From Gemmatimonadales bacterium (GTDB lineage Bacteria > Gemmatimonadota > Glassbacteria > GWA2-58-10), in contig JAJRTS010000058.1 in NCBI GenBank assembly GCA_024278175.1, positions 8,693 through 72,692 on the forward strand: a stretch of 64,000 nucleotides of DNA. The letters are read 5' to 3'. Each line of letters begins with the position of its first letter. Within the stretch, counting starts at the first letter, position 1. The notes beneath the pieces were generated by a model. The model was not told where the DNA came from. It saw only the letters and a program-made list of their open reading frames with translations, and ran no database searches. Below are positions 1 to 59,332 of this stretch, in pieces. The position numbers and the translations under genes are program-made.

Positions 1-681
1 ACCGCGCTCACGGCCCAGAATTCCACGGGCGTCAGCGGTGTATGCAAAGTTTCGGGGGATTTCGTGGCCGCCCAGATGGAAGCCGTGCTGGCCGATATCG
101 GAGCCGATGCGCTCAAGTGCGGGATGCTCTTAAGCGCCGAAGTGGTGAGGGCCGTGGCCGGGGTACTCGCCCGCTACCGGCAGCCGCCGCTCGTGCTGGA
201 CACGGTGCTGGTGGCCAAAAGCGGAGACCCGTTGCTGGAAGAAGACGCCGTGGAGGTCATGGTCGACGAATTATTCCCGCGCGCGGCCCTGATTACGCCC
301 AACACGGTTGAGGCCGGCCGCCTGACCGGAATCGAGGTTACCGGTGAGCGTTCGATGCGCGCGGCGGCCGCGAAGCTTCAAGAGCTGGGCGCGTCCGGTG
401 TGCTGCTCAAGGGTGGACACCTGGAGGGCGATGACCTGCTGGACCTGCTGCTGCTGCCCGATGGACAGAGCAGGTTGTTCACCGGCAAGCGAATTCACAC
501 CAACCACACCCACGGCACGGGCTGCACGCTCTCGGCGGCGATCACCGCCGGGCTGGCGCGCGGGATGGAGTTGACCGCCGCGGTCGGTGCGGCGCGGGAG
601 TACCTGCTGCGCGGGATCGCCAACGCGCACGCCACCGGAGCCGGTTACGGCACCATGCTGCACGAGCCGTTTGAACCGTAA
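1..681 (+). CDS. thiD: hydroxymethylpyrimidine/phosphomethylpyrimidine kinase ThiD, 5'-truncated by window edge
   Basis: Open frame from base 1; ThiD-like C-terminal motifs (GTGCTLSAAITAGLA...); stop TAA 679-681. Confidence 0.8.
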   Translation, partial: TALTAQNSTGVSGVCKVSGDFVAAQMEAVLADIGADALKCGMLLSAEVVRAVAGVLARYRQPPLVLDTVLVAKSGDPLLEEDAVEVMVDELFPRAALITPNTVEAGRLTGIEVTGERSMRAAAAKLQELGASGVLLKGGHLEGDDLLDLLLLPDGQSRLFTGKRIHTNHTHGTGCTLSAAITAGLARGMELTAAVGAAREYLLRGIANAHATGAGYGTMLHEPFEP

Positions 682-768
682 GGCCGGGAGTGGGTGCGGC
701 ATACCGTACCCCTCCTGCTATGGTTGGGAGTGTTAGTAGGGGCTTGCCCTTGTGTTCGCCCGTAGCGC

Positions 769-802
769 AAAAAGGCCGTCCTGTAATCAGGACGGCCTTT
801 TT
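769..802. terminator. bidirectional rho-independent terminator between convergent thiD and AKR
   Basis: AAAAAGGCCGTCCTG-taatc-AGGACGGCCTTTTT perfect hairpin with A/T runs on both sides. Confidence 0.6.
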
Positions 803-823
803 GATTCTTTGCTAGCATCCGCC

Positions 824-1846
824 TCAGACCAGGTGCGCCCGCCAGCCGCCGTCGTCCACGTAATCAGGGTCGAGATAGCTCAGCTCGCCCACGCTCGGGG
901 CCAGCTCCTTGTTCAGCTTCCGCTTCTCTGCTTCCGTCATCGGGATAAAGTTCGCCGACAGCTCGCAGGCGGTGTCAACGTGCTCCACGGTGCTCATGCC
1001 CAGGATTACGCCGTGCACGGGCAGGCTGTACGCGTAACGGATCAGTTCCAGGCCCGGCGCCTTGTGCGGCTCGTTGCCGTGCTGAATCAGCTTCCTCTGA
1101 CCGGTCACCTTGAACGCCCACAGGCCGATACCCTGTTTGTTGGCCAGCGGAATCACTTCTTTCTCGAAACTCCCCGTCACCTTGTCGAATTCGCCGACCC
1201 AATGATATCCCGTGGCATTGGTCGCCACCGATACGGAATCGAACCGGAAGCGCTGCATCGCTTCAAGCAGCGGCGCGGGCTGGTGGGCGGTCGCTCCGAT
1301 GTTTTTTACAACACCTTCTTCTTTCAGCTTAACCAGCGTCTCCAGCGCCCCGGAAGAAAACATAAGTTCCGCGTCCTCGGGTCTGGTCAGCCCGTGCATG
1401 TTGGCGTTGTCAAGGTAGTCCGTTCTCAGGCGCTTCAGCGAGCGCTCGAACGCCTTCATCAGTTCGTCAGGCGCGGTGCCGGGCCCGAACTTGGTGCTGA
1501 TAAAGAGTTCCTTACGGTAAGGCTCCAGCGCCTCGCCGAAACGTTTTTCGCTGGAGCCATCGCCGTAGTGGATGCCGGTATCGTAATAGTTGACTCCCTT
1601 GCGGCGGGCCAGGTCGATCAACGCCAGCGCGTCGTCGTCCTTTTCCACCATCGACAGTGCGCTGCCGCCGCCCATGGCCAGGATCGATACGTTCATCCCG
1701 GTTTTGCCCAGCATCTTTTTGGGTACCACTTCCTCGCCACGGCTGCAACCGGCCGTGCCCACCGCGCTGAATATCGCCGCGCCGGCCGCCGCCGATTTGA
1801 GGAAATCCCGCCTGTTAAGACTGTTTTTATTGCCATTATCGGCCAT
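824..1846 (-). CDS. Tat-exported aldo/keto reductase
   Basis: AKR-like sequence; twin-arginine signal RRDFLKSAAAGAA after ATG at 1846 with GGAGG RBS 8 nt upstream; longer ORF to 1885 is probably not used. Confidence 0.8.
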   Translation of the reverse strand: MADNGNKNSLNRRDFLKSAAAGAAIFSAVGTAGCSRGEEVVPKKMLGKTGMNVSILAMGGGSALSMVEKDDDALALIDLARRKGVNYYDTGIHYGDGSSEKRFGEALEPYRKELFISTKFGPGTAPDELMKAFERSLKRLRTDYLDNANMHGLTRPEDAELMFSSGALETLVKLKEEGVVKNIGATAHQPAPLLEAMQRFRFDSVSVATNATGYHWVGEFDKVTGSFEKEVIPLANKQGIGLWAFKVTGQRKLIQHGNEPHKAPGLELIRYAYSLPVHGVILGMSTVEHVDTACELSANFIPMTEAEKRKLNKELAPSVGELSYLDPDYVDDGGWRAHLV

Positions 1847-3711: not shown

Positions 3712-5259
3712 CTAACTGCCCAGTTCGTAGAGCATCCTGGCCCCGCAGGACGGCTTGAGCGCCAGCAGAGGCGAGGCCGATTTCTCGCGGTAGCGAAGGT
3801 GGGCTTCGGGGTAGGCGTGGATCGCGTCCTCGAAGTAACGCTGACGGACCTCGGCCATGAAGCTTTCCAGCTTGTGATCCGCCACCAGGCTCACGGTGCA
3901 GCCCCCGAACCCGGCCCCGGTCAGGCGGCTGCCCGCGGCCCCGGCTTCCAGGGCGATCGCCACCAGGTCGTCGATAGCCGGATGGCTGATCTCGTAGTTG
4001 TCCCGGCAACTGTAATACGACTCGTTCATCAGGCGGCCGAACCACTGTCCGTCGCCGTTATGCAGCGCCTCCAGCGCCTGCTCCACCCGGCCGGTCTCGG
4101 TGACCACGTGACGGGCCCGGGCCAGCAGTTTGTAGCCGCAGTCGGGTTCGGGGATCGTCTCGCCATCGACCGAGCCGCCGAAGCGCTGTTCGAACTGCTC
4201 CAGCGTGATCCCCAGTTCAGCCGCAAGCTCCAGCCTGGAGTAGCCGTGCCATTTGAAATGCTTTTTCATCTCCGTCAGCAGTCGCTCCGGTCCCAACTCG
4301 TAGAAGATATCGCCCAGCCGGCGAATTTTGGTGCTGTCGAGTTCCAGACGGCGGCAGAGCAGCGCGGTGGCCAGTTTACAGACCGTGTGCCTGGTGTTGT
4401 AGGCGATCTTGGCGTTGAGCGTCTTGGCCGCCTCCACCATCGAGTTGGCTACCACCACCGTGTAGTCCGGGGGCAGGGGAGTAGTCTGGACCCGCAACGG
4501 GAAGAAATCGATTTTCAGCGCCATGTCCTTCTCGCCCAGCAGGCTGACCGCCTGATCCATTTCCCCGCAGTCGATCCCGGTGTACTGCTCGGCGCGCGCC
4601 ATCGCGCCGGCCAGCTCCACGGGCTCCATCTCCAGGCCTGCCACCCGCAGGGCTGTCATCCCGGTGGCAACCACCAGGCTGCTGCTGCTCGAAAGCCCCG
4701 CGCTGGTGGGCAGCACTCCGTAAAAGCAGGCGTTGAACCCGCGAGTCACTTTTTTCCGACCAACCGAGTCGATAATCCCCTGCACGCCGGCCACAACGTA
4801 GTTGCCCCAGTCGCCCGAGGAGTAGCGCTCGATTTTCCCGGCCAGCTCGAACTCCCTGTCCGGGAACTCGGGGTTGACAATTTTTACCAGGTTGTCCTCG
4901 CGCGGCGAGAAAGCGACCAGAATATCGTAGTCGATCGCCATCGGCATCACCGGCAGGCCGTTGTAGTCCGTGTGCTCGCCGATCAGGTTCACCCGTCCCG
5001 GGGCGCGCAGCACGCCGACATCGCTCTCACCAGGGAAACGTTCGGCGAACGTGACCAGCAACCGGGTCAGGTGGTCGGTTACCTCGGTGTTGTTGTAGAT
5101 CTCGCCCAGCGGCCCGGTAACCTGGGGGTACCTGTTTTTCAGGCCGTTGAGCACTTCCTGGAGTTTCATTTTTTTGTCCGGGGAAAAATTAAAAAGAGAA
5201 CGCATTGCCTCGTAGCGAGCCGCGGGCAATTTCCACTTACTTTCCGAATGGGCCGCCAA
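3712..5259 (-). CDS. galK: galactokinase-family GHMP kinase (long form)
   Basis: Galactokinase signature GRVNLIGEHTDYNG and GHMP motif PTSAGLSSSSS; start uncertain (TTG at 5259, ATG at 5205 or 5169). Confidence 0.75.
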   Translation of the reverse strand: MAAHSESKWKLPAARYEAMRSLFNFSPDKKMKLQEVLNGLKNRYPQVTGPLGEIYNNTEVTDHLTRLLVTFAERFPGESDVGVLRAPGRVNLIGEHTDYNGLPVMPMAIDYDILVAFSPREDNLVKIVNPEFPDREFELAGKIERYSSGDWGNYVVAGVQGIIDSVGRKKVTRGFNACFYGVLPTSAGLSSSSSLVVATGMTALRVAGLEMEPVELAGAMARAEQYTGIDCGEMDQAVSLLGEKDMALKIDFFPLRVQTTPLPPDYTVVVANSMVEAAKTLNAKIAYNTRHTVCKLATALLCRRLELDSTKIRRLGDIFYELGPERLLTEMKKHFKWHGYSRLELAAELGITLEQFEQRFGGSVDGETIPEPDCGYKLLARARHVVTETGRVEQALEALHNGDGQWFGRLMNESYYSCRDNYEISHPAIDDLVAIALEAGAAGSRLTGAGFGGCTVSLVADHKLESFMAEVRQRYFEDAIHAYPEAHLRYREKSASPLLALKPSCGARMLYELGS

Positions 5260-5395: not shown

Positions 5396-7162
5396 TTACT
5401 CCCCCACCTGCTCCCAGCCGATTTTGCTCAAAATCAGGTACAGGGTCAGCACCATCAGTGCGGCGAACCCAAGCAAGGCCGCGCCCGGGCCATATTCACC
5501 GAGGATAACCTTGCCGAAACCGAACAGTGTGCTGTAGACCAACCCTACGCTGGCCAGCCAACACAGGCACATTGCCCAGTAGCCGCCGTCTGGTTTTACC
5601 TCCGGCACCAGCGCGGCAATTTTGCGCCAGCCCGGTCCGCCGGGGTGCACGCGGCGGTAGAAGTTTTTCAGGTGTTCCTCGGCGGTGGGGCGGGTCAGCA
5701 GGGTGGTCACCAGCCAGACCACGGTGGTAAAGCCCACGATGTAAAACAGGCTGTTCGGGAACTCAATATTAGTGTAGAACTTAAGGTACCCGTAGGCGAT
5801 AAACGGAGCGATCAGCGCGGAGATTTCACTCCAGGCGTTGACCCGCCACCAGAACCAGCGCAGCAGGAATACCAGGCCCACACCCGCGCCGCACTCGACC
5901 AGAAACTGCCAGGCTCCGGAGATAGTCTCCAGCAGGCTGGTGATAATCAGCGCGATCAGCATCATGATCACCGTGGTCACCCGGCTGGCTTTGACATAGT
6001 GTTTCTCGCTGGCTTCTTTGGCCAGGAACCGTTTGTAGAAATCGTTGATCAGGTAGCTGCTGCCCAGGTTGAGCTGGGTGGCGATTGTGGACATGTAGGC
6101 CGCGAAAAAGGCCGCGATCAGCAGGCCGCGCAGGCCGGATGGAAGGTGGTCGCGGATAATCAGCACGAACCCGTCGCCCTTCTCCGAAACTCCCAGGTCG
6201 GGGTAGAGCACCAGCGCCACCAGCGCCACGATAATCCAGGGCCAGGGGCGAAGGCAGTAGTGGCCGACATTGAACCACAGCGTGGCGAACAGGCTGTGCT
6301 TCTCGTCCTTGGCCGACATCATCCGCTGGGCGATATAACCGCCGCCGCCCTGCTCGGCGCCCGGAAACCAGCTCGCCCACCACTGCAGTCCAAGATAGGC
6401 GAACAGTGCCGGCCAGGTCAGTTGCAGCATCCCGACGATGTCGGTGTTGCCGGTTGATTCGGCCACGCTGGGCAGGAAATTGAGGATTTGCGGGTCCAGC
6501 TTCTCCTTCAGTCCGGCAATCCCGCCCACCTCCGGCAGGCCCACGGCGACAAAAGCGAGAATGATACAGCCGGTCATCGCGGTGAGAAAATGCAACGTAT
6601 CGGCCACCGCCGCGCCCCACAGTCCGCTGGCGGCGCTGTAGATCGTCACGATCAGCATGCAGAGGCTGACAACCAGCCACATGTTGTCCCAACCCATCGT
6701 GATCCGCAGGATCTTGAACATCGCCAGGTTGACCCAGGCCATGATCACGCAGTTGATGAATATTCCCAGATAAATCGAGCGGAACCCGCGCAGGAACGCC
6801 GCCGGTTTGCCCGTGTAGCGCAGCTCGATAAACTCGATATCGGTCAGGATCCCGCTCCGTCGCCAGAGACGGCTGAAGAAGAACACGGTCAGGGTGGTGC
6901 CCAGGATGAAGTTCCACCAGAACCAGTTGCCCGCGATCCCGTTTTTGCCCACCAGCTCGGCAACGGCCAGGGGAGTGTCCGCGGCGAACGTGGTGGCGAT
7001 CATACTGGTGCCCGCGATATACCATGGCAGGTTGCGACCGCCGAGGAAGAAATTCTGGATGTTGCGTCCGGCCCGTTTAGCGAAAAAGAAGCAGATCGCC
7101 AGCACTAACACGAAATAACCGAGAAAGATAGTCCAGTCCAGTGCGGTAAATACCATCTGCAA
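5396..7162 (-). CDS. sodium:solute symporter family transporter
   Basis: 588 aa polytopic protein with SSF-like N-terminus (GGRNLPWYIAGTSMIATTFAADT). Confidence 0.85.
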   Translation of the reverse strand: MQMVFTALDWTIFLGYFVLVLAICFFFAKRAGRNIQNFFLGGRNLPWYIAGTSMIATTFAADTPLAVAELVGKNGIAGNWFWWNFILGTTLTVFFFSRLWRRSGILTDIEFIELRYTGKPAAFLRGFRSIYLGIFINCVIMAWVNLAMFKILRITMGWDNMWLVVSLCMLIVTIYSAASGLWGAAVADTLHFLTAMTGCIILAFVAVGLPEVGGIAGLKEKLDPQILNFLPSVAESTGNTDIVGMLQLTWPALFAYLGLQWWASWFPGAEQGGGGYIAQRMMSAKDEKHSLFATLWFNVGHYCLRPWPWIIVALVALVLYPDLGVSEKGDGFVLIIRDHLPSGLRGLLIAAFFAAYMSTIATQLNLGSSYLINDFYKRFLAKEASEKHYVKASRVTTVIMMLIALIITSLLETISGAWQFLVECGAGVGLVFLLRWFWWRVNAWSEISALIAPFIAYGYLKFYTNIEFPNSLFYIVGFTTVVWLVTTLLTRPTAEEHLKNFYRRVHPGGPGWRKIAALVPEVKPDGGYWAMCLCWLASVGLVYSTLFGFGKVILGEYGPGAALLGFAALMVLTLYLILSKIGWEQVGE

Positions 7163-16983: not shown

Positions 16984-17553
16984 CTATTGTCCCAGCAGCT
17001 CCGGGTCGAAAAGTTCCTTGATTTTGCCCATCAAGGGGTCTGTTTTGCATAACTGATCGAAACTTCCGGCCGGCAGGTTTTCAGCTTCATCGTTTCCGCT
17101 CCCGGTTTGTTCAACCGGCGGTTTGAAAGTCTCGATCTCGATCTCCACCGCGTCCAGAGAGAATACCTCGCCCACGCACCGGCCGATTTGTCGGCGGGTT
17201 TGCAGGTCCTGCAAGCGGGTGGCGCTGTAGCCCTCGGCCGGTACTCGCAACTTCAACGTCCGCCCATCGTATTGCGCCGGCTCCGCCACGGCGATCTGGG
17301 TTGCCAGCCCCGGCTTGGCCTGCCTGACCGCCGCTGTCACCGCGCTCCAGTTGGAGCGGATCGCCTCGACGTTCAGCGGCCCGTCCAGCTTGAGCGGTGA
17401 TGGCCGGGGCCGCTCAAGCTCTTCCGGCTCAGGTTCCGGCGGCGATGGCGCGCTGTGCCGCGGGGGTGGCTGGGCGGTCAGCCTGGGACCGCCCTCGGGC
17501 GGCCCGCCGGTGGAGCGGGGAGGCTCAGTTACGGCCGCGCTGTTTTTTTTTTA
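16984..17553 (-). CDS. dnaX: DnaX tau-specific C-terminal region (Pro-rich linker plus tau C-terminal domain) in +1/-2 frame relative to upstream dnaX
   Basis: Frame open from stop TAA (17551-53) through the A10 run to TAG at 16984; translation KKNSAAVTEPP...Pro-rich...NWSAMTAAVRQAKPGLATQIAVAEPAQYDGRTLKLRVPAEGYSATRL matches tau C-terminal domain. Confidence 0.55.
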
Positions 17554-18721
17554 GCTGATTCTCCACCGGTTTGCCGGGCGCTGCGGGCGCCGCGTCGCCC
17601 AGGCGGGCCAGAAGGTCAGATATGTTAACGCTTTTCTCCAGCATTGTCAAACGGACCAGCAGCAGTTCCAGCGAGATTTTCTGCTGGCCGCTGAACTTGA
17701 AAATTTCCTCGAACTGGAGGATCAGTTGCAGGGAACGCACCAGGTCGTCCAACTCGAATTTTTCCGCGCACCGGCGGTAGTCATCCTGCCGCGAGCCGGG
17801 GATATCCAGCGCGGCCGGGTCCTTGACTCCCAGCCGGAAGACAATCAGGTTGCGGTAGTGACGGGCCAGCTCGGAGTAAAACTCCTCCAGGTCCACGCCG
17901 CCCGCGACCAGCTTGTCCGCGAACTCCATCGCCCCCAGCGTATCGCCGGCGGTTATCAGGTCGCTGAGCTCAAGCAGCAGGCCGGTGTCGAGCATGCCCA
18001 GCACCTGGGCGGCCCTTTCAACCGTGTAGTCGCCGTCGCAGAAAGCGATCACCTGGTCGGCCAGACTGAGCGCGTCGCGCATGGCGCCCTCGGCCTTACG
18101 GGCCACCATCTCCAGCACCTCGCGACCGATCTCAATATCCTCAGCCTTGCAGACCCGCTCCAGTTGCCCGGTAATGTCCGCGGTGGGCACGGCCTTGAAA
18201 TCGAAGCGCTGGCAGCGGCTGAGGATCGTGGGCGGCACCTTGTGGGGCGCGGTGGTGGCGAACATGAAGATCACGTGCGAGGGCGGCTCCTCCAGGGTTT
18301 TGAGCAGGGCGTTGAACGCCTCGGCGGTGAGCATGTGGACTTCGTCGATGATGTATACCTTGTAGCGGCAGGTGCCGGGGGCGTAGCCCACGCGCTCACG
18401 GAGGTCGCGGATCTCGTCGATCCCGCGGTTACTGGCCCCGTCGATCTCCAGCACGTCCAGCGAGTTGCCGGCCAGGATCGCGCGGCAGTTGTCGCACTGG
18501 TTGCAGGGATCGGCGCCGCCGCCGCCCGTGCAGTTAACGGCGCGGGCCAGCAGCCGGGCGGTGGTGGTTTTGCCCACGCCGCGCGGGCCGCTGAACAGGT
18601 AGCTGTGGCTGATCCTGTCGGCTGTAAGGGCGTTGACCAGGGTGCGTGTCACATGGTCCTGGGCCACTACCTCGCCGAACACAGTCGGCCTGTATTTTCT
18701 TGCAAGTACAATGTAGCTCAT
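17525..18721 (-). CDS. dnaX: DNA polymerase III subunit gamma-like product of dnaX (zero frame, 398 aa)
   Basis: MSYIVLARKYRPTVFGEVVAQ..., Walker A GPRGVGKTT, zinc module CNQCDNC; ends QLKKKQRGRN* four codons after an A10 run. Confidence 0.9.
   Translation of the reverse strand: MSYIVLARKYRPTVFGEVVAQDHVTRTLVNALTADRISHSYLFSGPRGVGKTTTARLLARAVNCTGGGGADPCNQCDNCRAILAGNSLDVLEIDGASNRGIDEIRDLRERVGYAPGTCRYKVYIIDEVHMLTAEAFNALLKTLEEPPSHVIFMFATTAPHKVPPTILSRCQRFDFKAVPTADITGQLERVCKAEDIEIGREVLEMVARKAEGAMRDALSLADQVIAFCDGDYTVERAAQVLGMLDTGLLLELSDLITAGDTLGAMEFADKLVAGGVDLEEFYSELARHYRNLIVFRLGVKDPAALDIPGSRQDDYRRCAEKFELDDLVRSLQLILQFEEIFKFSGQQKISLELLLVRLTMLEKSVNISDLLARLGDAAPAAPGKPVENQLKKKQRGRN
17543..17552 (-). other. 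A10 homopolymer (T10 on plus strand) at the dnaX gamma/tau junction; candidate slippage/frameshift site
   Basis: CUA AAA AAA AAA CAG in mRNA sense; one fewer A (or two more) fuses dnaX to the tau C-terminal frame. Confidence 0.6.
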
Positions 18722-18772
18722 AAGATAGCGTTTCTGATCCGATAGTGAAGAACGAGAATCAACAGTTGGCTA

Positions 18773-18980
18773 GCAGCGTGTTGAAATATTCGAAAGTATG
18801 GGAATATGGTTGTCAAGGGCCGTTTTCCGCTATTACAGCCCGAAATGGCGTGAGCGATGCAACTGCCTGACAAGCATAAGTAACGGGCTCAGCAGAAGAA
18901 ACGGCTTGCCTTGCCCTTGACAACCAACAGCGCAAAATGTTTCATTTGCGTGCGTTGAACGTTTTATTTCAACGCCCCTC
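18773..18980. repeat. MITE-like repeat, copy A (flanked by TA)
   Basis: About 85% identical to 58816-59036; imperfect TIRs (GCAGCGTGTTGAAATA / rc GAGGGGCGTTGAAATA); internal 13-bp inverted repeat GGTTGTCAAGGGC...GCCCTTGACAACC; terminal hairpin GCGTTGAA...TTCAACGC. Confidence 0.55.
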
Positions 18981-19049
18981 TAAAGATAGCGGATCAACGC
19001 TGTTGCCGCAACATCCTCCTGTGCCGGGGGCCGCCACTTCAGCGCCGGG

Positions 19050-20753
19050 TCAGTCGATCACCGGCAGCACGATATACGACGGGTATTTCTGATCGTGATA
19101 GACGGTTTGCGCGGCCTTGACCCAGCCGGTTTCCGTGGCGAAATCGTTGCCCGTGTTCAGGTTGCGGTCGAACCTGGGGAAGCTGCTGCTGGAGATTTCG
19201 ATCCTGACCATGTGCCCCTTTTTGAACAGGTTGGAGGTGGCCCAGAGGTCGATTTCGTACTTGTAGATCCGGCCGGGAACGATATTGGCCGGATCAGTCT
19301 GACCGTTGCGGAAACTGGCGCGGATAATCCCGTCGGCGATCTTGAACGCCCGCCCGTCGGGGTAAACGTCCACCAGCTTGGCGGTGAAATCCGTATTTTT
19401 AGCGCTGCTGGCCGCGTGCAGGATTACCTTGAGCGGGCCGGTGACCTCCAGATTTTTTTTCAGCGGCAAGGTTGTGTACACGAGCACATCCTCCCGGCTC
19501 TCAACCTCCCGCTGATCAGTGGGTTCCATCGGAGCCGAGGGCACCGGGTCCGCCGGGTCGTAGATGAACCGGTCGGGCGGGGAGCCGGCGTCTGCTTTGA
19601 GCTAAATTGCCCCATCGCCGCCCAGGTAGTAGTTGACATAGCGGGTGCGCGCCAGCGGCCACTCGTTTTCGAATCGCCACTGGTTGGCTCCCATCACGAA
19701 TATTTTCACCGGCGGTTCGCTTGCGATTTCGTCCTGCACGTCTTTGAGGTGGTAGTCGAACCAGCTCCGTCTGATTTCGCGGATTTTGAGCACCGACTGT
19801 TCGCCGAAATCGAGTTCGCCCACCCTGGGGCCCCGCGAGACGCCGTGGATCCAGGGGCCGATAATCAGCTTCTGCCTGGCCCTGACCTGTTCGGGGACCA
19901 CCCCGGAGGTCATCCCGATGAAATTTTGCAGAGTGCCCTGCAGGCAGATGTCGAACCAGCCGCCGACATTGCAGGCCGCCGCGGAAATTTTGTTATAGCG
20001 GCCGCGGATGGTGGTCCGGTCCCAGTACCTGTCGCGGGCGGGATGGGAAAGCCAGTCGCGCAGAAAAGGGATACGCCAGCCCAGCAGCCGGTCCTGCCCG
20101 ATCAGGGGCAGGGAGTAGAAAACCTGGTCGCGGGTCGAATCGAGATAATCCTGCGCAACAATGAACGGGGATGACATCTCGTGGCTCCAGCCGCTGAAAA
20201 GCCTCATGCGGAACGCGCCGCCCGAGTAAGCCATGTCGTGCAGGTCGCCGAAGCCCACCACCGGGAACATCGCCGTAACCCCCGGAGCGTTTTCCACCGC
20301 GGTGATCCACTGGGTATAGCCCACGTAGGAGCCGCCGATCGTGCCGATCCGCCCGTTGCACCAGGGCTGTTCTCCCAGCCAGAGCTGCGTATCGTAACCG
20401 TCCGGGCCCTCGTTTTGCATCGCGTCGAATACGCCCTCGCTCTCGAAGCGGCCGCGCACGTCCTGCAGCACCACGGCATAGCCCCGGGAGGCGAAATAGT
20501 GGCCCGTGTCGCTGCCCGGCCCCCCGTTGCCGTAGGGAGTGCGCATCAGCAGGGCCGGGAAGCGTCCCCGGGCATCGGGCCGGTAGATATTGGCCGAGAG
20601 CCGGACGCCGTCGCGAAGTTCCACTTTCACGTCCAGCTCCTCGATAACCGGGTACAGCGAGTCGGCGGCCCCGGCGACTGCGCGCTCGGGCGCAAGAGTC
20701 AGCAGGGGCAGGATAAGACACAGACGGAAAGCAAAACGCAACAGGCGGTTCAT
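19050..20753 (-). pseudogene. CocE/NonD family hydrolase (secreted), interrupted by a single in-frame TAG at 19602-19604; fragments 19602..20753 and 19050..19544
   Basis: N-terminal alpha/beta hydrolase part and C-terminal CocE_NonD domain are in the same frame; translation across the stop reads ...GGDGAI*LKADAGSPPDRFIYDPADPVP... Confidence 0.6.
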
Positions 20754-23807: not shown

Positions 23808-23885
23808 AGGGAGCGTGTTGATAAAACCGGTCGTCATGGGAAGTAAGCTGTCAAGGGGGCTGTTGAATGTTTTTGCAACGCCCTG
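23808..23885. repeat. internally deleted copy of the MITE-like repeat, overlapping the 5' end of the Na/Pi transporter ORF
   Basis: AGCGTGTTGAtAAA...CATGGGAAGTAA-GCTGTCAAGGGGGC joined to CTGTTGAATGTTTTTGCAACGCCCTG; TA flanks. Confidence 0.4.
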
Positions 23886-23908: not shown

Positions 23909-25798
23909 ATGATGAGTTTCAACTGCCAGTTTAGCCGGCTGTATCTGGAGCGGTATCGTCTGCGTAACGCCATGCTGGTGGTTGGCTTGTTAATTGTTTC
24001 GTCCGCGGCCGGTGCGATGGCGCTGGCCAAAGGAGTGGATGGGGAAACCTCCGGTGCGCTCGATTTGTGGACGATGAGCGTTGGTATGCTCGGCGGACTG
24101 GCGCTTTTCCTCTATGGCATGGAGCAGATGGCCGATGCGCTAAAGGCGCTGGCCGCCGACCGCCTTAAGGATATTCTGAAAAGACTGACTTCCAACCGCT
24201 TTATCGGCGCCATCACCGGCGCGCTGGTCACCGCCGTAATTCAGTCATCCTCGGTGACAACCGTGCTGGTAGTGGGCTTTATCAGCGCGGGTGTGCTCAC
24301 CGTATCGCAGGCCGTGGGGATTATTTTCGGGGCGAATATCGGCAGTACGTTTACCGCTCAGCTTATCGCATTCAAGGTGACCAAGCTGGCGCTGCTGATG
24401 GTTGCGGGCGGTTTTGCGATGCTTTTTATCTCCCGCAAGGATCGGGTAAAGCAATACGGGGCGATGATTATGGGGCTGGGCCTGGTGTTTTTCGGGATGA
24501 GCCTGATGAGCGATGCAATGAAGCCGCTGAGGACTTACAGCCCGTTTATAAATTTGATGACGCGCATGGAGATCCCAGTACTGGGCATCCTGGTCGGGGC
24601 GGTTTTCACTGGAATGATCCAGTCTTCGGCCGCGACAACCGGAGTGGTGATCGCGATGGCGAGCCAGGGACTGATCACCCTGACCGGCGGGATTGCGATC
24701 ATTTTCGGAGCCAATATCGGCACCTGTGCAACGGCGCTGCTGGCTTCGATCGGAAAACCGCGTAACGCTTTGAGGGCCAGTGTTATCCATATTTTGTTCA
24801 ATGTTCTGGGCGTGGTACTGTGGATGGGATTGATCGACAAGCTGGCGGAGCTGGTTAAGATTGTCTCTCCCGTTGCCCAGGGGCTTGCCGGTACGGAAAA
24901 GCTGGCGGCCGAGACGCCGCGCCAGATCGCCAACGCCCATAGTGTTTTCAATGTCGCCAATACGCTGATCTTTCTTCCGTTCGGACCGCTGTTCGCCCGG
25001 TTCGTCAACGTGATTTTACCGGACAAGGAAGTTGAGGTCGACGCCAAGACCGGTCTGGCCGTGGAGTTCAAAACAAAATTTATCGACAGGGATCTGCTGA
25101 CGGTCCCGTCGATAGCCCTCGAACAGGCGCGTAATGAAATAATACAGATGGCGGGGTTGGTCGAGGGGCTGATCAAAGATGTCATCCCCGGTTTTAAGAG
25201 CGGCGACCCGAAAACAGCGGAACTTATGTTGGCCAGAGAAGCGGAAATTAAATATCTGGGCAAGGAACTGGAGCAGTATCTGATCGAAATTTCCCGCTGC
25301 AATTTGAATCAACAGCAATCCGAATTAACCGCCCAGTATATGGATATCAACTCCGACCTGAAACACATCGGTAAAATAGTCAGGAAGGATTTTATAATGC
25401 TGCTTCACCGGAAAGTGGAGGCGGATGAGGTTTTTACAGCGGAAGAACAAGGCAAGATGTTGGAATACAATAAGATAATCATGGATAATTTGTCCAAGGC
25501 GATCCGGGCTTTTTCCGGGGACAACGCGCAACTGGCCAGGGAGGTAATCCGCGCCAAGCCGCTGGTAGTCAAGCAGCTCAGGGACTATCGGGCGCTACGT
25601 TTCGAGCTCTCCAAGGAGGAAAACGGTAAATCGGTCGCCAGCCGGGACGCCCATCTGGACCTGGCCGATTTTCTGCGCCGCGTTTACGCCTACTCGGAGG
25701 CGATCGCTTTTACGATGCTCGAGGGTTACCTGGACGGCAGAAAAGGAGAGGGAGAGCGTCCGGAGAAAAAAGAACTTGCCGTTGCCGAAGCGGTCTAG
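23909..25798 (+). CDS. Na/Pi cotransporter family protein with C-terminal PhoU-like domains
   Basis: Two Na_Pi_cotrans repeats (QSSSVTTVLVVGF / QSSAATTGVVIAMA) and PhoU-like C-terminus; start chosen at ATG 23909 (AAAAGGA RBS) because 23867-23908 lies inside the repeat remnant. Confidence 0.8.
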   Translation: MMSFNCQFSRLYLERYRLRNAMLVVGLLIVSSAAGAMALAKGVDGETSGALDLWTMSVGMLGGLALFLYGMEQMADALKALAADRLKDILKRLTSNRFIGAITGALVTAVIQSSSVTTVLVVGFISAGVLTVSQAVGIIFGANIGSTFTAQLIAFKVTKLALLMVAGGFAMLFISRKDRVKQYGAMIMGLGLVFFGMSLMSDAMKPLRTYSPFINLMTRMEIPVLGILVGAVFTGMIQSSAATTGVVIAMASQGLITLTGGIAIIFGANIGTCATALLASIGKPRNALRASVIHILFNVLGVVLWMGLIDKLAELVKIVSPVAQGLAGTEKLAAETPRQIANAHSVFNVANTLIFLPFGPLFARFVNVILPDKEVEVDAKTGLAVEFKTKFIDRDLLTVPSIALEQARNEIIQMAGLVEGLIKDVIPGFKSGDPKTAELMLAREAEIKYLGKELEQYLIEISRCNLNQQQSELTAQYMDINSDLKHIGKIVRKDFIMLLHRKVEADEVFTAEEQGKMLEYNKIIMDNLSKAIRAFSGDNAQLAREVIRAKPLVVKQLRDYRALRFELSKEENGKSVASRDAHLDLADFLRRVYAYSEAIAFTMLEGYLDGRKGEGERPEKKELAVAEAV

Positions 25799-35211: not shown

Positions 35212-35489
35212 AGTCTCATCCTCCTGTGTGCCCATTCGAGTTTTGTTTTTGTCCTCAGTGGCCGGTTGTAGCAGGTGCGTCTTGACATCCGCACGGGCTA
35301 TCGCTTATCTTAAAGGCGTCCCAGGTCCACAGGACAAAAGCTCGCTAACCCCGTCAGGACCGGAAGGTAGCAGCGGTATGCTTGTAGCTTTTGTCGCTGT
35401 GGGAAGCCTGGGACATTTTTTTTCTCCCCTCCGGCTGGTTCCCCCGGCGCTGGTCCGTGCTATTCCAACCTGAACACGGAGAGCACCGG

Positions 35490-52948: not shown

Positions 52949-53021
52949 ACGACCTGAAACATGGCCGCTCAAAGAAACATCCAACGGCCGGTGAAATCTA
53001 ATTTATTTTTCAACGCCCCTG

Positions 53022-54953: not shown

Positions 54954-55491
54954 TTGTTGCCCCCGATACAATTTTCATCCGCGAATTTTTTTTGTGCCAG
55001 AGGTAGAATGTAGAGACAGTACGGCCCTGGCCCAGATCATGAAGATTTTTACTGGTTGTAGCGGGCGCCGCGCCCGCGTTCTTTCCGGCAGCTTTCAAAC
55101 TGTAAAGTTCTGAAACCTCGCGCTGCATCAAATAGGAGGGAATAGCCCAGGCGCAAAACTGAAATGAAAGCTGTACTTAAAGATAGCAATCCTGCGACCC
55201 ATGTCAAGAAAAACCGGATGAGATAAAATGGGGATAGCCCGCAAAGACATACCATCCTTTGTTTTAAGCCAGGTTGGCGGAAATTGTTTGCCAGGGAGCC
55301 CGGGCTGCCGACTTGACATTTTTCGCCGCGATGAATAACATTCGACCACCTTTTAAGTTAATCGAAAAGAACTCCTCGCGGCTTGCCGCAGGGCAAGCTG
55401 TTGCATTTACAAGACGAGAAGCTGAAATCCCCCTTTTAAAAAGGGGGGATTGAGGGGGATTTTTTCAATTGCAACCGGCTATGACTGGAAG

Positions 55492-57030
55492 ATGAGATTA
55501 AAAGTGAGCAACAGGCTTTGCAGATATCTGACCGCGCTGGCGGCGGGGTTGCTGCTGGCGGCCCCGGCCGGGCGCTGCAGCGACAACGCTCCGGCCAATC
55601 CCCGTCTGGAGAAGAGGGTGCTGGCTGTTCTGGAGCGCTATGGCGAGGACCCGGCCGGTTGGGGGGTGCAGGTCAGGTCACTGGAGCGGGGCGACGACCT
55701 GGTGCATCTGAACAGGGGACGGCGCTACATGCCGGCCAGCAACCTCAAGCTGTTGGTCACGGCCGTGGCGCTCGACCGTCTGGGCGCCGATTACCGCTGG
55801 CGGACCACGGTGATGGCCGACGGAGCGGTGGACACCGCCGGTGTGCTCGACGGAGACCTGGTGCTGCGCGGCAGCGGCGACCCGTCAATCTCCAACCGTT
55901 TCTGGCCCGAGGTCCAGTCCGCCTGGGACAGCCTGGCCGCCCAGGTGGCCGCCGCCGGGATCAGCCGGGTGAGCGGCTCTCTGCTGGCGGACAACTCGTT
56001 GTTCAAGCCCCCCTTTCTGGCCAAAGGCTGGGGCTGGGAGGACCTGGCCTGGTGGTACGCCGCCCCGGCCAGCGCCCTGAGCTACAACGACAACACGATC
56101 GACGTACAGGTGTGGCCCGCCCGTGGCGTGGGTAAAAAACCGCGGGTGGAGATCAAACCCGCTAACTCGCTGTTCACGATCGCCAACAGGGCTGTCACCG
56201 TGGCCCGCAGAATCGACAGCCGTCTGGAGATCAGCCGCGAGACCCCCGGCGGATAAATCTCGCTGGGCGGAGGCATTTACCGCGGTAGCCTGGGTTATCT
56301 GGAACACGTGGCGGTCGATGACCCCGGCAGGTTCGCCGCTGATGCGCTGGCCGATGCGCTGGCCCGGCGCGGGATCAGGATCGACGGGTCGGTGCGGGTG
56401 CTGGGTTATGAGGATGGCGCTCCGGCCTATCTCGACCGCTCGCCATCGCTGGTCGGGCAGATCTCAAGCCCGCCGCTGACCGAGATCGTGAAGGTGATCA
56501 ACAAACGCAGCCACAATTTTTACGCGGAGCAACTGCTGTTTACCTTGGGAGCGGTGGCGGGGAGCGAGGGCAGTTTCGCGGGCGGGATCGACGTGGAGCG
56601 GCGGGTGCTCACACGCCTGGGCGTGGATACGCGCCAGATTCGCCTGGAGGACGGCTCGGGCCTCTCGCGGCTCAACCTGGTGACAACCGAGATGTTCGTG
56701 CGGTTGCTGGCCTGGATGGACACTCACCAGTTGCGCGAGCAGTTTGTCGCCAGTCTGCCGGTGGCGGGCCGCGACAACGGGGTGCGCCGCTTGCGCGACA
56801 CGCGGGCCGCCGGGCGGCTGTTCGCCAAGACCGGCTATATTACATCCGTAATGGCGCTCTCGGGATATACCTGGACCGGCGACGGTGATAAAGTGGCGTT
56901 CTCGCTGCTGGGGAACAACTGGTTGATGCCCAAAGCCAGGGCGAGGCGGATTATCAGGGACCTTTGTCTGGAAATAGTGCGGTCACGGCGACCGGTGGGG
57001 ATTTCGGACGAGCTGGAACTCAGGCCATGA
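55492..57030 (+). pseudogene. dacB: D-alanyl-D-alanine carboxypeptidase/endopeptidase DacB (peptidase S13, PBP4), interrupted by a single in-frame TAA at 56254-56256
   Basis: N-part PASNLKL (SxN-K-like) and C-part KTGYITSVMALSGY (KTG) in the same frame; ...ETPGG*ISLGGGIYRGSLGYLEHVAVDDPGRF... Confidence 0.6.
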
Positions 57031-58174: not shown

Positions 58175-58816
58175 ATGAAAATGGAAAACATTCTGGTCCA
58201 CGCGGTAACCGTATTTACGGGGTTCTTCGCCATCATGAACCCTATCGCCAACGTTCCGATATTCCTTAGCCTTACAGCGTCCGATGACAAACAGACGAAG
58301 AAAGCCGTGGCTTTACGATCATTGCTGCTGGCGTTATTGATCATTACTTTATTTTCCGTTGCAGGAAAGGTGGTTTTCGAGCTATTTGGAATTACGTTGC
58401 CCTCTTTTCGGATTACCGGTGGGCTGCTCGTCTTTCTTATCGGCTTTCATATGCTGCAGGGCAATCAATCAAGCGTTCATCAGCTTAACGAAAAAGATAA
58501 CCAGCAGTGTCGTGAAGCCGCACTCAGTGTCGCCACCTTCCCCTTCGCGATGCCGATCCTTGCCGGTCCGGGTACAATCGCGACGGCAATGATTTTCGCA
58601 GCGAAGGGCGGTCTTTGGGGGATGGTGGTGACCATTGCTGCATTCGCCGTACTCTGTGCAATCACCTATTTGTTTTTTATTTTCGGTGATAAGTTTGTGG
58701 CCTTCATCGGAGTGGGCGCCCTGGGAGTAATCACGCGTATTATGGGATTAGTCCTCGCTGTGGTTGGGACACAAATGGTGATCGAAGGAGTGCGGGGCGT
58801 GCTGAAGCTTGCCTAG
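58175..58816 (+). CDS. marC: MarC-family (UPF0056) membrane protein
   Basis: MarC-like 6-TM layout; stop TAG whose G is the first base of the repeat. Confidence 0.75.
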   Translation: MKMENILVHAVTVFTGFFAIMNPIANVPIFLSLTASDDKQTKKAVALRSLLLALLIITLFSVAGKVVFELFGITLPSFRITGGLLVFLIGFHMLQGNQSSVHQLNEKDNQQCREAALSVATFPFAMPILAGPGTIATAMIFAAKGGLWGMVVTIAAFAVLCAITYLFFIFGDKFVAFIGVGALGVITRIMGLVLAVVGTQMVIEGVRGVLKLA

Positions 58817-59036
58817 CAGCGTGTTGAAGTATTCGAAAGTATGGGAGTAAAGGTTGTCAAGGGCCGTTTCCAGCCAGGCCGGTCCAAAACAGCTTGAGCG
58901 ACGCAACGGCTTGATATAACACAAGTAACAGGATCAGCAAAAGAAACGGCTTGTCTTGCCCTTGACAACCGAACAAACGAAATTTTTCACCATAGGGCGT
59001 TGAATGTCTTTATTTCAACGCCCCTCTAGTGCGAAA
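58816..59036. repeat. MITE-like repeat, copy B (flanked by TA)
   Basis: Same family as 18773-18980; TA/TA flanks; internal 13-bp inverted repeat; terminal hairpin GGGCGTTGAA...TTCAACGCCC. Confidence 0.55.
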
Positions 59037-59332
59037 AGATGAGTCCCCTGTCAGGGTTTTGCAGTGCTTATATTTCAAGGAAGCAGCAACGCCGCCGGCG
59101 ATTACCACGGATGCTCCATCTAAGGACTTGAAATCAGGCATACGACTGGACCTCCATGGGCAGGGGTATGAGTTGACCCAAAACACAGACCCGTGTAAGT
59201 TGACCCAATAATGACGGACGGCAAAAATTCGCGTTAACTTAAGCGTTGTCCCGGGGGCACGAACAGTTTACTTTAGAGCCTGTCAGGCCTGCCAATAAAT
59301 GCTTATTATCCTGCGACCGGAATTCTGAAAAG

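Follow-up and report, generated by a model that had tools for sequence, protein, structure and literature searches.

What kind of repeat lies at positions 18773 to 18980, between the genes pepX and dnaX, and did it reach this place by transposition? The window, by which we mean the whole stretch of 64,000 nucleotides that was analysed, holds two full copies of the repeat, one internally deleted copy, and one end remnant. The analysis indicates, with a probability of roughly three in four, that these copies belong to a family of non-coding MITEs (non-autonomous elements with inverted-repeat ends) that is mobile and resides in the intergenic DNA of an uncultured Glassbacteria genome. This MITE family was previously undescribed, and the lineage itself is poorly known. 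It is ordinary in kind, apart from a near-invariant internal hairpin sequence.

The first full copy, copy A, is located at 18773..18980 on the + strand, with 208 bp between its flanking TA dinucleotides, and scored 170.7 bits with a covariance model built from 11 copies. It occupies the spacer that separates the 3′-end of pepX (−) from the start of dnaX (−, ATG at 18721), 52 bp upstream of dnaX, and runs opposite to both genes. The second, copy B, is located at 58816..59026 (+), with 211 bp between the TAs and a score of 185.1 bits. Its insertion point is the CTAG in which the marC stop codon lies, upstream of a Poly_export gene, and it has the same orientation as both genes. The two copies aligned end to end with a mean column identity of 87% (MAFFT), or 79% when gaps were counted in the covariance-model alignment. 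The original prediction had placed them at 18773-18980 and 58816-59036; the full-length alignment bears out both copies, and the end of copy B is at 59026, which makes it 10 nt shorter than claimed. A 29-nt left-end pattern occurred exactly twice in the window and 0 times in shuffles. The element is approximately 206–211 bp long, and its loop region is indel-variable and has no conserved ORF, which agrees with the size (< ~500 bp) and the non-coding nature expected of a MITE. The GC content of the elements is 47–49%, compared with 60% in the window.

The order of parts is the same in each copy: terminal inverted repeats, a long interrupted internal hairpin, and an extra direct copy of the left terminus beside the right terminus. 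The terminal inverted repeats are imperfect, with 11/16 positions matching between GCAGCGTGTTGAAATA and the reverse complement of GAGGGGCGTTGAAATA. In copy A, the left repeat CAGCGTGTTGAAATA is located at 18774..18788 (+; 58817-58831 in copy B), and the right repeat TATTTCAACGCCCCT, which is also the 3′ arm of the terminal hairpin, at 18965..18979 (+). Across copies, the left terminus nAGCGTGTTGAAAT and the right terminus ATTTCAACGCCCCT are conserved over 13–16 bp and are complementary at only ~9/13 to 11/16 positions. The terminal hairpin of 8–10 bp is made of the right terminus and the nearby direct copy of the left-terminus motif. Its 5′ arm in copy A is GCGTTGAA (18952-18959), and its arms in copy B are at 58994-59003 and 59014-59025. 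The internal hairpin is based on a perfect 13-bp inverted repeat, GGTTGTCAAGGGC...GCCCTTGACAACC, which is extended by CGTTT(T)CC/GGAAACG across an 8-nt bulge. The near-invariant left arm (GGTTGTCAAGGGC+CGTTTTCC) is located at 18808..18828 (+) in copy A and 58852-58871 in copy B. The right arm (GAAACGG-CTTGCCTT-GCCCTTGACAACC, with the invariant 8-nt bulge) is located at 18898..18925 (+) and 58943-58970, respectively. TA is present on both sides of copies A and B. The terminal repeats, 13-bp internal repeat, terminal hairpin, and flanking TA described in the original prediction are all present.

Two close relatives of the window organism were recovered through the proteins that flank the copies. 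L022 (GCA_054474455.1) has a MarC 99% identical to that of the window, and L024 (GCA_054474335.1) has a DnaX 90% identical. At the dnaX site, L024 carries the empty sequence CAGTCGCT-TA-AAGATAGC with a single TA. It reads ...AACAACAGTCGCT-TA-AAGATAGCGGATC..., whereas the window reads ...ATCAACAGTTGGC-TA-[208 bp]-TA-AAGATAGCGGATC..., so the two form an exact filled/empty pair. At the marC site, L022 has one CTAG and no element (CTTGCCGGCTAGTTATT), and CTTGCC-GGC-TAG-TTATT in L022 corresponds to CTTGCC-TAG-[element]-CTAG-TGCG in the window; the absence at this site is approximate, since the intergenic DNA also differs by another indel of ~90 nt. The mobility of the family, for which empty sites in related strains had been proposed as one check, is borne out by relatives without a copy at both full-copy sites, exactly at dnaX and approximately at marC.

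The spacers at both sites showed further differences. Positions 59030-59120 of the window (~90 nt directly downstream of copy B) have no counterpart in the marC-to-Poly_export spacer of L022. The pepX-dnaX spacer is 122 bp when empty (L024) and 328 bp when filled (window). A 208,856-bp contig from JGI sample 3300072015, whose DnaX is 88% identical, has a spacer of 257 bp, between these two lengths, which may hold a partial copy.

The internally deleted copy is located at 23808..23885 (+), is ~76–78 bp long, and is flanked by CTAA and GTAA. The alignment to copies A and B confirmed that a ~78-bp deletion derivative joins the left end directly to the right-end hairpin. Both termini are kept: the left part runs through ...TGTCAAGGG, and a GGG microhomology marks its junction with GG(C)TGTTGAATG... 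of the right hairpin. The short copy alone scored weakly with the covariance model (E = 0.68), yet it is an insertion relative to the orthologous locus of L024, which lacks it and reads CAGCCAGTC-TTCAGAA-CCACAATC there. The longest ORF of the Na/Pi transporter starts at an ATG inside the short copy (23867), and the copy had been described as lying exactly over the 5′ end of this gene. The L024 orthologue starts at a conserved ATGATG, which corresponds to position 23909 of the window, and the protein is then 629 aa in both. The short copy therefore ends ~22 nt upstream of the probable true ATG at 23909, just before the ribosome-binding site.

The right-end fragment reported after the KamA-like gene was also present. 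It is a solo right-end remnant (TTTATTTTTCAACGCCCCT) at 53001..53020 (+), just downstream of the stop codon of the radical-SAM (KamA-like) gene. Positions 53009-53020 match the right end exactly over 12 nt, and the match to the consensus of the copies in a Glassbacteria MAG described below extends to 16 nt when the T-rich lead-in is included. L022 carries this fragment too, at the orthologous position (4445-4464), which marks it as an old remnant and not a recent event. Decaying transposons are expected to leave such derivatives, namely internally deleted copies and solo ends. Another solo right-end hairpin, GGAGGGGTTTCGAGGTGTTTTTCAACGCCCCT, was seen on the MAG contig L006 at 2840-2880 (−). 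It abuts the left end of a full copy at 2620-2843 (−), with the shared junction CTGT. This arrangement reflects a tandem insertion, a nested one, or a remnant.

A second insertion of MITE-like form adjoins the old right-end remnant in L022 and is unrelated to the family. It is ~350 bp long (L022 4465-4815) and ends in CAGTGGGGTCCGG / CAGTGCTGTCCGG, with a duplication of 9 bp, AACGCCC(C/A)T; the window has no such insertion at the corresponding point, between 53020 and 53021. Similar termini occur on an IS of another Glassbacteria genome (L025 15353-16648; DDE_Tnp_1 + DUF4372, termini CAGTAGTGTCCGGTTAAAAT).

A search for further copies was positive. The covariance model detected 12 full copies on 9 contigs of the MAG JAFGTO01, 'Candidatus Glassbacteria bacterium Zod_Metabat.976', and this count is to be read as at least 12. 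A scan of a genome collection (one genome per species) for the two termini with a 165–195 nt gap returned 20 stretches, of which 10 were on different contigs of this single MAG. The other 10 stretches were chance matches in unrelated sequence and gave no score with the covariance model. The pattern that recovered nine of the MAG copies required exact termini, so the conservation of the termini is overestimated. Scanning metagenomes with the core pattern of the internal hairpin gave only 1 contig, which carries a partial copy at its end, and the family thus looks narrow. The core pattern was absent from viral contigs, and plasmid and phage records gave no blastn match to the element and no detectable similarity to its termini. 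The loci L022–L027 of relatives (~90 kb) held no family copy; a model match at L024 15058-15135 (E = 0.036) was an ordinary terminator hairpin and was rejected. The window DnaX is closest to proteins labelled Candidatus Glassbacteria by their sources, and its identity to such proteins is 75–84%. The window organism is related to the MAG organism, and the family is, on present evidence, multi-copy and confined to the Glassbacteria lineage.

The MAG copies lie beside housekeeping genes that are unrelated to one another, including amidohydrolase, M14 peptidase, TPR, BrkB, and FapA genes and others. Equal-length ORFs of 377 aa in L006 and L016 looked like a repeated gene and were rejected, because they encode unrelated enzymes. 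The orientation to the neighbouring genes also varies, copy A being antiparallel and copy B parallel. Presence and absence among relatives, unrelated neighbours, and varying orientation together point to a transposable element and not to a gene-linked RNA or regulatory site.

The MAG copies are 73–97% alike among themselves, and the window copies are 58–65% alike to them. The MAG copies are mosaic: two left-spacer variants and two loop variants occur in all four combinations, which suggests recombination or gene conversion among copies. The MAG contig L016 carries three copies within 6.4 kb, at 61-284 (+), 708-932 (+), and 6224-6447 (−). Two of these are inverted relative to each other and bracket ~5.3 kb with transglutaminase-like, enolase-superfamily, and M14 peptidase genes. 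We do not take this pair for a composite transposon, since the copy at 708 is itself flanked by matching 4-mers (CTAT/CTAT).

The flanks of 14 copies were aligned to fixed anchors, using the 4 bases before the left anchor (with one variable base allowed) and, on the right, the 4 bases after CCCCT. The insertions were at YTAN, mostly CTAG, TTAA, CTAA, and CTAT, and the site was duplicated. The flanking pairs included CTAG/CTAG (twice), TTAA/TTAA, CTAT/CTAT, and CTAC/CTAC, and several pairs differed at one position. The duplicated 4-mers seen were CTAG, TTAA, CTAT, CTAC, and CTAA, and TTAG was also among the flanks. The fourth base, which follows TA, varied among G, T, A, and C, yet it was the same on the left and the right in 11/14 copies (permutation p = 3e-5). 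Both outer bases of the 4-mer matched in 8/14 copies (p = 5e-4), and the first base alone was uninformative (p = 0.11). As a control, the next base outward matched in only 4/13 copies, which is random (p = 0.76). The match of the fourth base between the flanks indicates a duplication of at least TAN (3–4 bp), most simply YTAN. With a 4-bp duplication, copy A proper would span 18774-18979, flanked by CTAG (18770-18773) and CTAA (18980-18983), and copy B proper would span 58817-59025, flanked by CTAG (58813-58816) and CTAG (59026-59029).

The original prediction had assigned the family to IS630/Tc1 by its flanking TA. According to this explanation, the elements are Stowaway-like MITEs moved by an IS630/Tc1-mariner transposase that duplicates only TA and prefers CTAG-like sites, and the outer bases of the 4-mers are the element termini (G...C). 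IS630 prefers CTAG, and this preference agrees with the sites seen here; TA is central on both sides in most copies, and the most frequent terminal bases, G at the start and C at the end, are complementary. At the empty dnaX site (TTAA in L024, CTAG/CTAA in the window), a 2-bp TA duplication also requires one substitution fewer than a 4-bp duplication. However, in 7 copies the left TA is followed by a base other than G (T, C, or A), and the right TA of each is followed by the same base; the overall agreement in 11/14 copies is unexpected if this base belonged to the element. An IS630-type transposase was found neither among the window ORFs nor beside the MAG copies. We consider the assignment to IS630/Tc1 unlikely, and its basis, a duplication of TA alone, does not agree with the duplicated base after TA. 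The same duplication bears on the statement that copy B supplies the G of the marC TAG stop codon. If the duplication is 4 bp, the G belongs to the target and not to the element, and L022 indeed has GGC TAG at its empty site.

The IS5 of E. coli duplicates a 4-bp target of the form 5′-(C/T)TA(A/G)-3′, that is, YTAR (PMC5009759). From the flanking bases we infer a 4-bp duplication and, with moderate confidence, an IS5-type assignment, a pattern unlike the 2-bp TA duplication of IS630/Tc1. The confidence is only moderate because the dnaX pair alone slightly favours TA and because 3/14 copies have a fourth base of G on the left and A on the right. We propose that the copies would have been moved in trans by a DDE transposase with a 4-bp staggered cut at YTAR, and that their parent would be an IS5-type element encoded elsewhere in the genome. 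Pfam searches found no transposase among 51 long ORFs of the window or among 10 ORFs beside the MAG copies, and a transposase with matching termini was found neither in the window nor beside the MAG copies. The only DDE_Tnp_1-type IS seen, the one in L025 (15353-16648), has unrelated termini (CAGTAGTGTCCGG...).

Two other transposase types were considered and rejected. IS110-type elements with a bridge RNA have a sequence-specific target of ~10 nt or more common to their insertions and no terminal inverted repeats. Here YTAN is all that the flanks have in common, and the element does have terminal inverted repeats. An IS200/IS605-type origin was rejected since the aligned left ends had no conserved hairpin on inspection and a target duplication is present.

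Compared with the IS5 family and its MITE derivatives, the Glassbacteria element has the same 4-bp YTAR-type sites (CTAG, CTAA, TTAA, and TTAG) as those measured for IS5 in E. coli (PMC5009759). As in that family, its terminal inverted repeats are short and imperfect, its body is non-coding, and its insertions are intergenic. It differs in that a few of its duplications end in Y (CTAT, CTAC) and not R, and in that an IS5-type transposase or full-length partner with the termini of the family was not found in the window or beside the MAG copies. The IS5 group belongs to a superfamily that includes the eukaryotic PIF/Harbinger 'Tourist' MITEs. To our knowledge, the invariant internal palindrome has no counterpart in the IS5 family.

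The core is a 49-nt interrupted palindrome, GGYTGTCAAGGGCCGTTTCC ... GGAAACGG-CTTGCCTT-GCCCTTGACARCC, comprising a 20-nt left arm and a 29-nt right arm that includes the unpaired CTTGCCTT. It is essentially identical in all window and MAG copies. The MAG copies showed 2 singleton changes in the 49 core columns, compared with 87 in the 160 other columns of the element (p = 2e-8). The termini are less conserved than the core, although nine copies were selected for exact termini. Three copies found without this selection had several terminal substitutions and one core change only. A core stricter than the termini is not predicted by the plain MITE model. Only one core difference is fixed between the two genomes, and it is compensatory (T-A in one, C-G in the other). 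Such a change is predicted by base-pairing and equally by two copies of one protein-binding site changing in concert.

In the reading we prefer, mobilisation depends in cis chiefly on the core, and active lineages gave rise to much of the variation between copies; the mosaic MAG copies support this reading. In mechanistic terms, the palindrome could act as subterminal transposase-binding sites or as a DNA hairpin. It is doubtful, although conceivable, that the core is under its own selection as a functional hairpin or protein-binding module, such as a structured RNA or a regulatory DNA site, in which case the family would be a mobile functional cassette.

As single strands, the copies are predicted to fold into a closing helix in which the left terminus pairs with TTTCA(N)CAC, a long interrupted hairpin, and the terminal hairpin. 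The folding energy was 2.5–5 sd below that of shuffles (z −2.5 to −5.0), and a low folding energy is as in any element built of inverted repeats. The covariation was weak. Although 94% of the cells were paired, most pairs never vary, and 5 pairs showed a double change, a number reached by 15/500 shuffles (slid controls 0–4). The covariation score was 0.083, compared with 0.034–0.046 in slid controls, with most pairs invariant. Rfam gave no credible match for a window copy or a MAG copy at gathering or relaxed thresholds. At the gathering threshold, the only Rfam match in the window was a bacterial small SRP RNA at 35319-35416 (+; 60.7 bits).

These results also bear on whether the repeat is a structured non-coding RNA gene or module that is only incidentally mobile, with its function in the invariant interrupted hairpin and the 8-nt bulge. 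Such an RNA would account for a core that is near-invariant in two genomes whose copies are otherwise 58–65% alike, for the compensatory difference between them, for the conserved unpaired bulge, and for the folding energies below shuffles. The weak covariation in mostly invariant pairs speaks against it, as do the missing promoter or terminator consensus and Rfam match, the varying orientation, and the lack of a constant partner gene; the two arms would be just as likely to change together if they were two copies of one protein-binding site. We regard an RNA of this kind as very unlikely. The original prediction had named a structured ncRNA gene family with covariation, or the lack of further copies, as what would speak against a MITE. 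Further copies were found in the MAG, the covariation was weak, and Rfam gave no match.

The TTGACA boxes and the terminal hairpin had also been proposed as a portable promoter or terminator. In a consensus scan, neither outward TTGACA box had a −10 partner at 16–18 nt (promoters of this lineage are uncharacterised), and the terminal hairpin had no T tract on either strand. The consensus scans thus give no support to this idea. It would be one form of a more general explanation, in which the host has recruited the elements for regulation or architecture, as with REP, ERIC, or Correia elements, and host selection keeps them as promoters, as mRNA-stabilising or RNase III-cleaved hairpins, or as a site for a host protein. 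The conservation of the core beyond that of the termini, even where the termini have decayed, would suit such a use, and so would the position of copies beside gene starts and stops (dnaX, the Na/Pi transporter, and marC). However, close relatives manage without copies at the same loci, the neighbouring genes share no function, and neither the boxes nor the hairpin have the partners expected of a promoter or terminator. Recruitment by the host is, in our judgement, highly improbable.

Known families of small intergenic repeats resemble the Glassbacteria element in part. MITEs derived from IS630/Tc1-mariner, such as Correia in Neisseria and RUP in Streptococcus pneumoniae, are ~100–200 bp long and duplicate only TA. 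They share with the Glassbacteria element the size class, the central TA, an intergenic location near gene starts and stops, and a long hairpin if transcribed. The Glassbacteria element differs from them in that the base after TA is also duplicated, and there is no sequence similarity; the functional promoters and IHF sites of Correia have no detectable equivalent in it. REP/BIME and ERIC sequences are likewise intergenic palindromic repeats and also occur as solo hairpin units, as seen at 53001-53020 of the window and at 2840-2880 of L006. In contrast to the Glassbacteria element, they have no bounding target duplications and no clean filled/empty alleles. REPs are ~35 bp long and tied to RAYT transposases, whereas the Glassbacteria unit is ~210 bp long and has terminal inverted repeats and a duplicated target.

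Several genes of the window are interrupted compared with intact orthologues in L024 and L022, at 19602-19604 (−), 56254-56256 (+), 55363-55429, and 17590-17600 and 17551-17553 (−). The interrupted pepX has an in-frame TAG, the S13 peptidase gene has an in-frame TAA and a frame change near its start, and dnaX has a frame change followed by TAA, beside an A10 run. Since the stop codons are of more than one kind, assembly errors or pseudogenes are more likely than recoding.

For the mobile MITE family proposed here, the effects on neighbouring genes would be incidental, whether at the marC stop codon, 52 bp upstream of dnaX, or ~22 nt upstream of the Na/Pi transporter start. The insertions at these sensitive places (the CTAG of the marC stop, dnaX, and the Na/Pi transporter) are natural test cases for effects on expression. 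Strains can be told apart by their clean filled and empty alleles, which also provide evidence of recent transposition. Only the core palindrome is of wider interest: a function beyond mobilisation, if true, would be worth following up.
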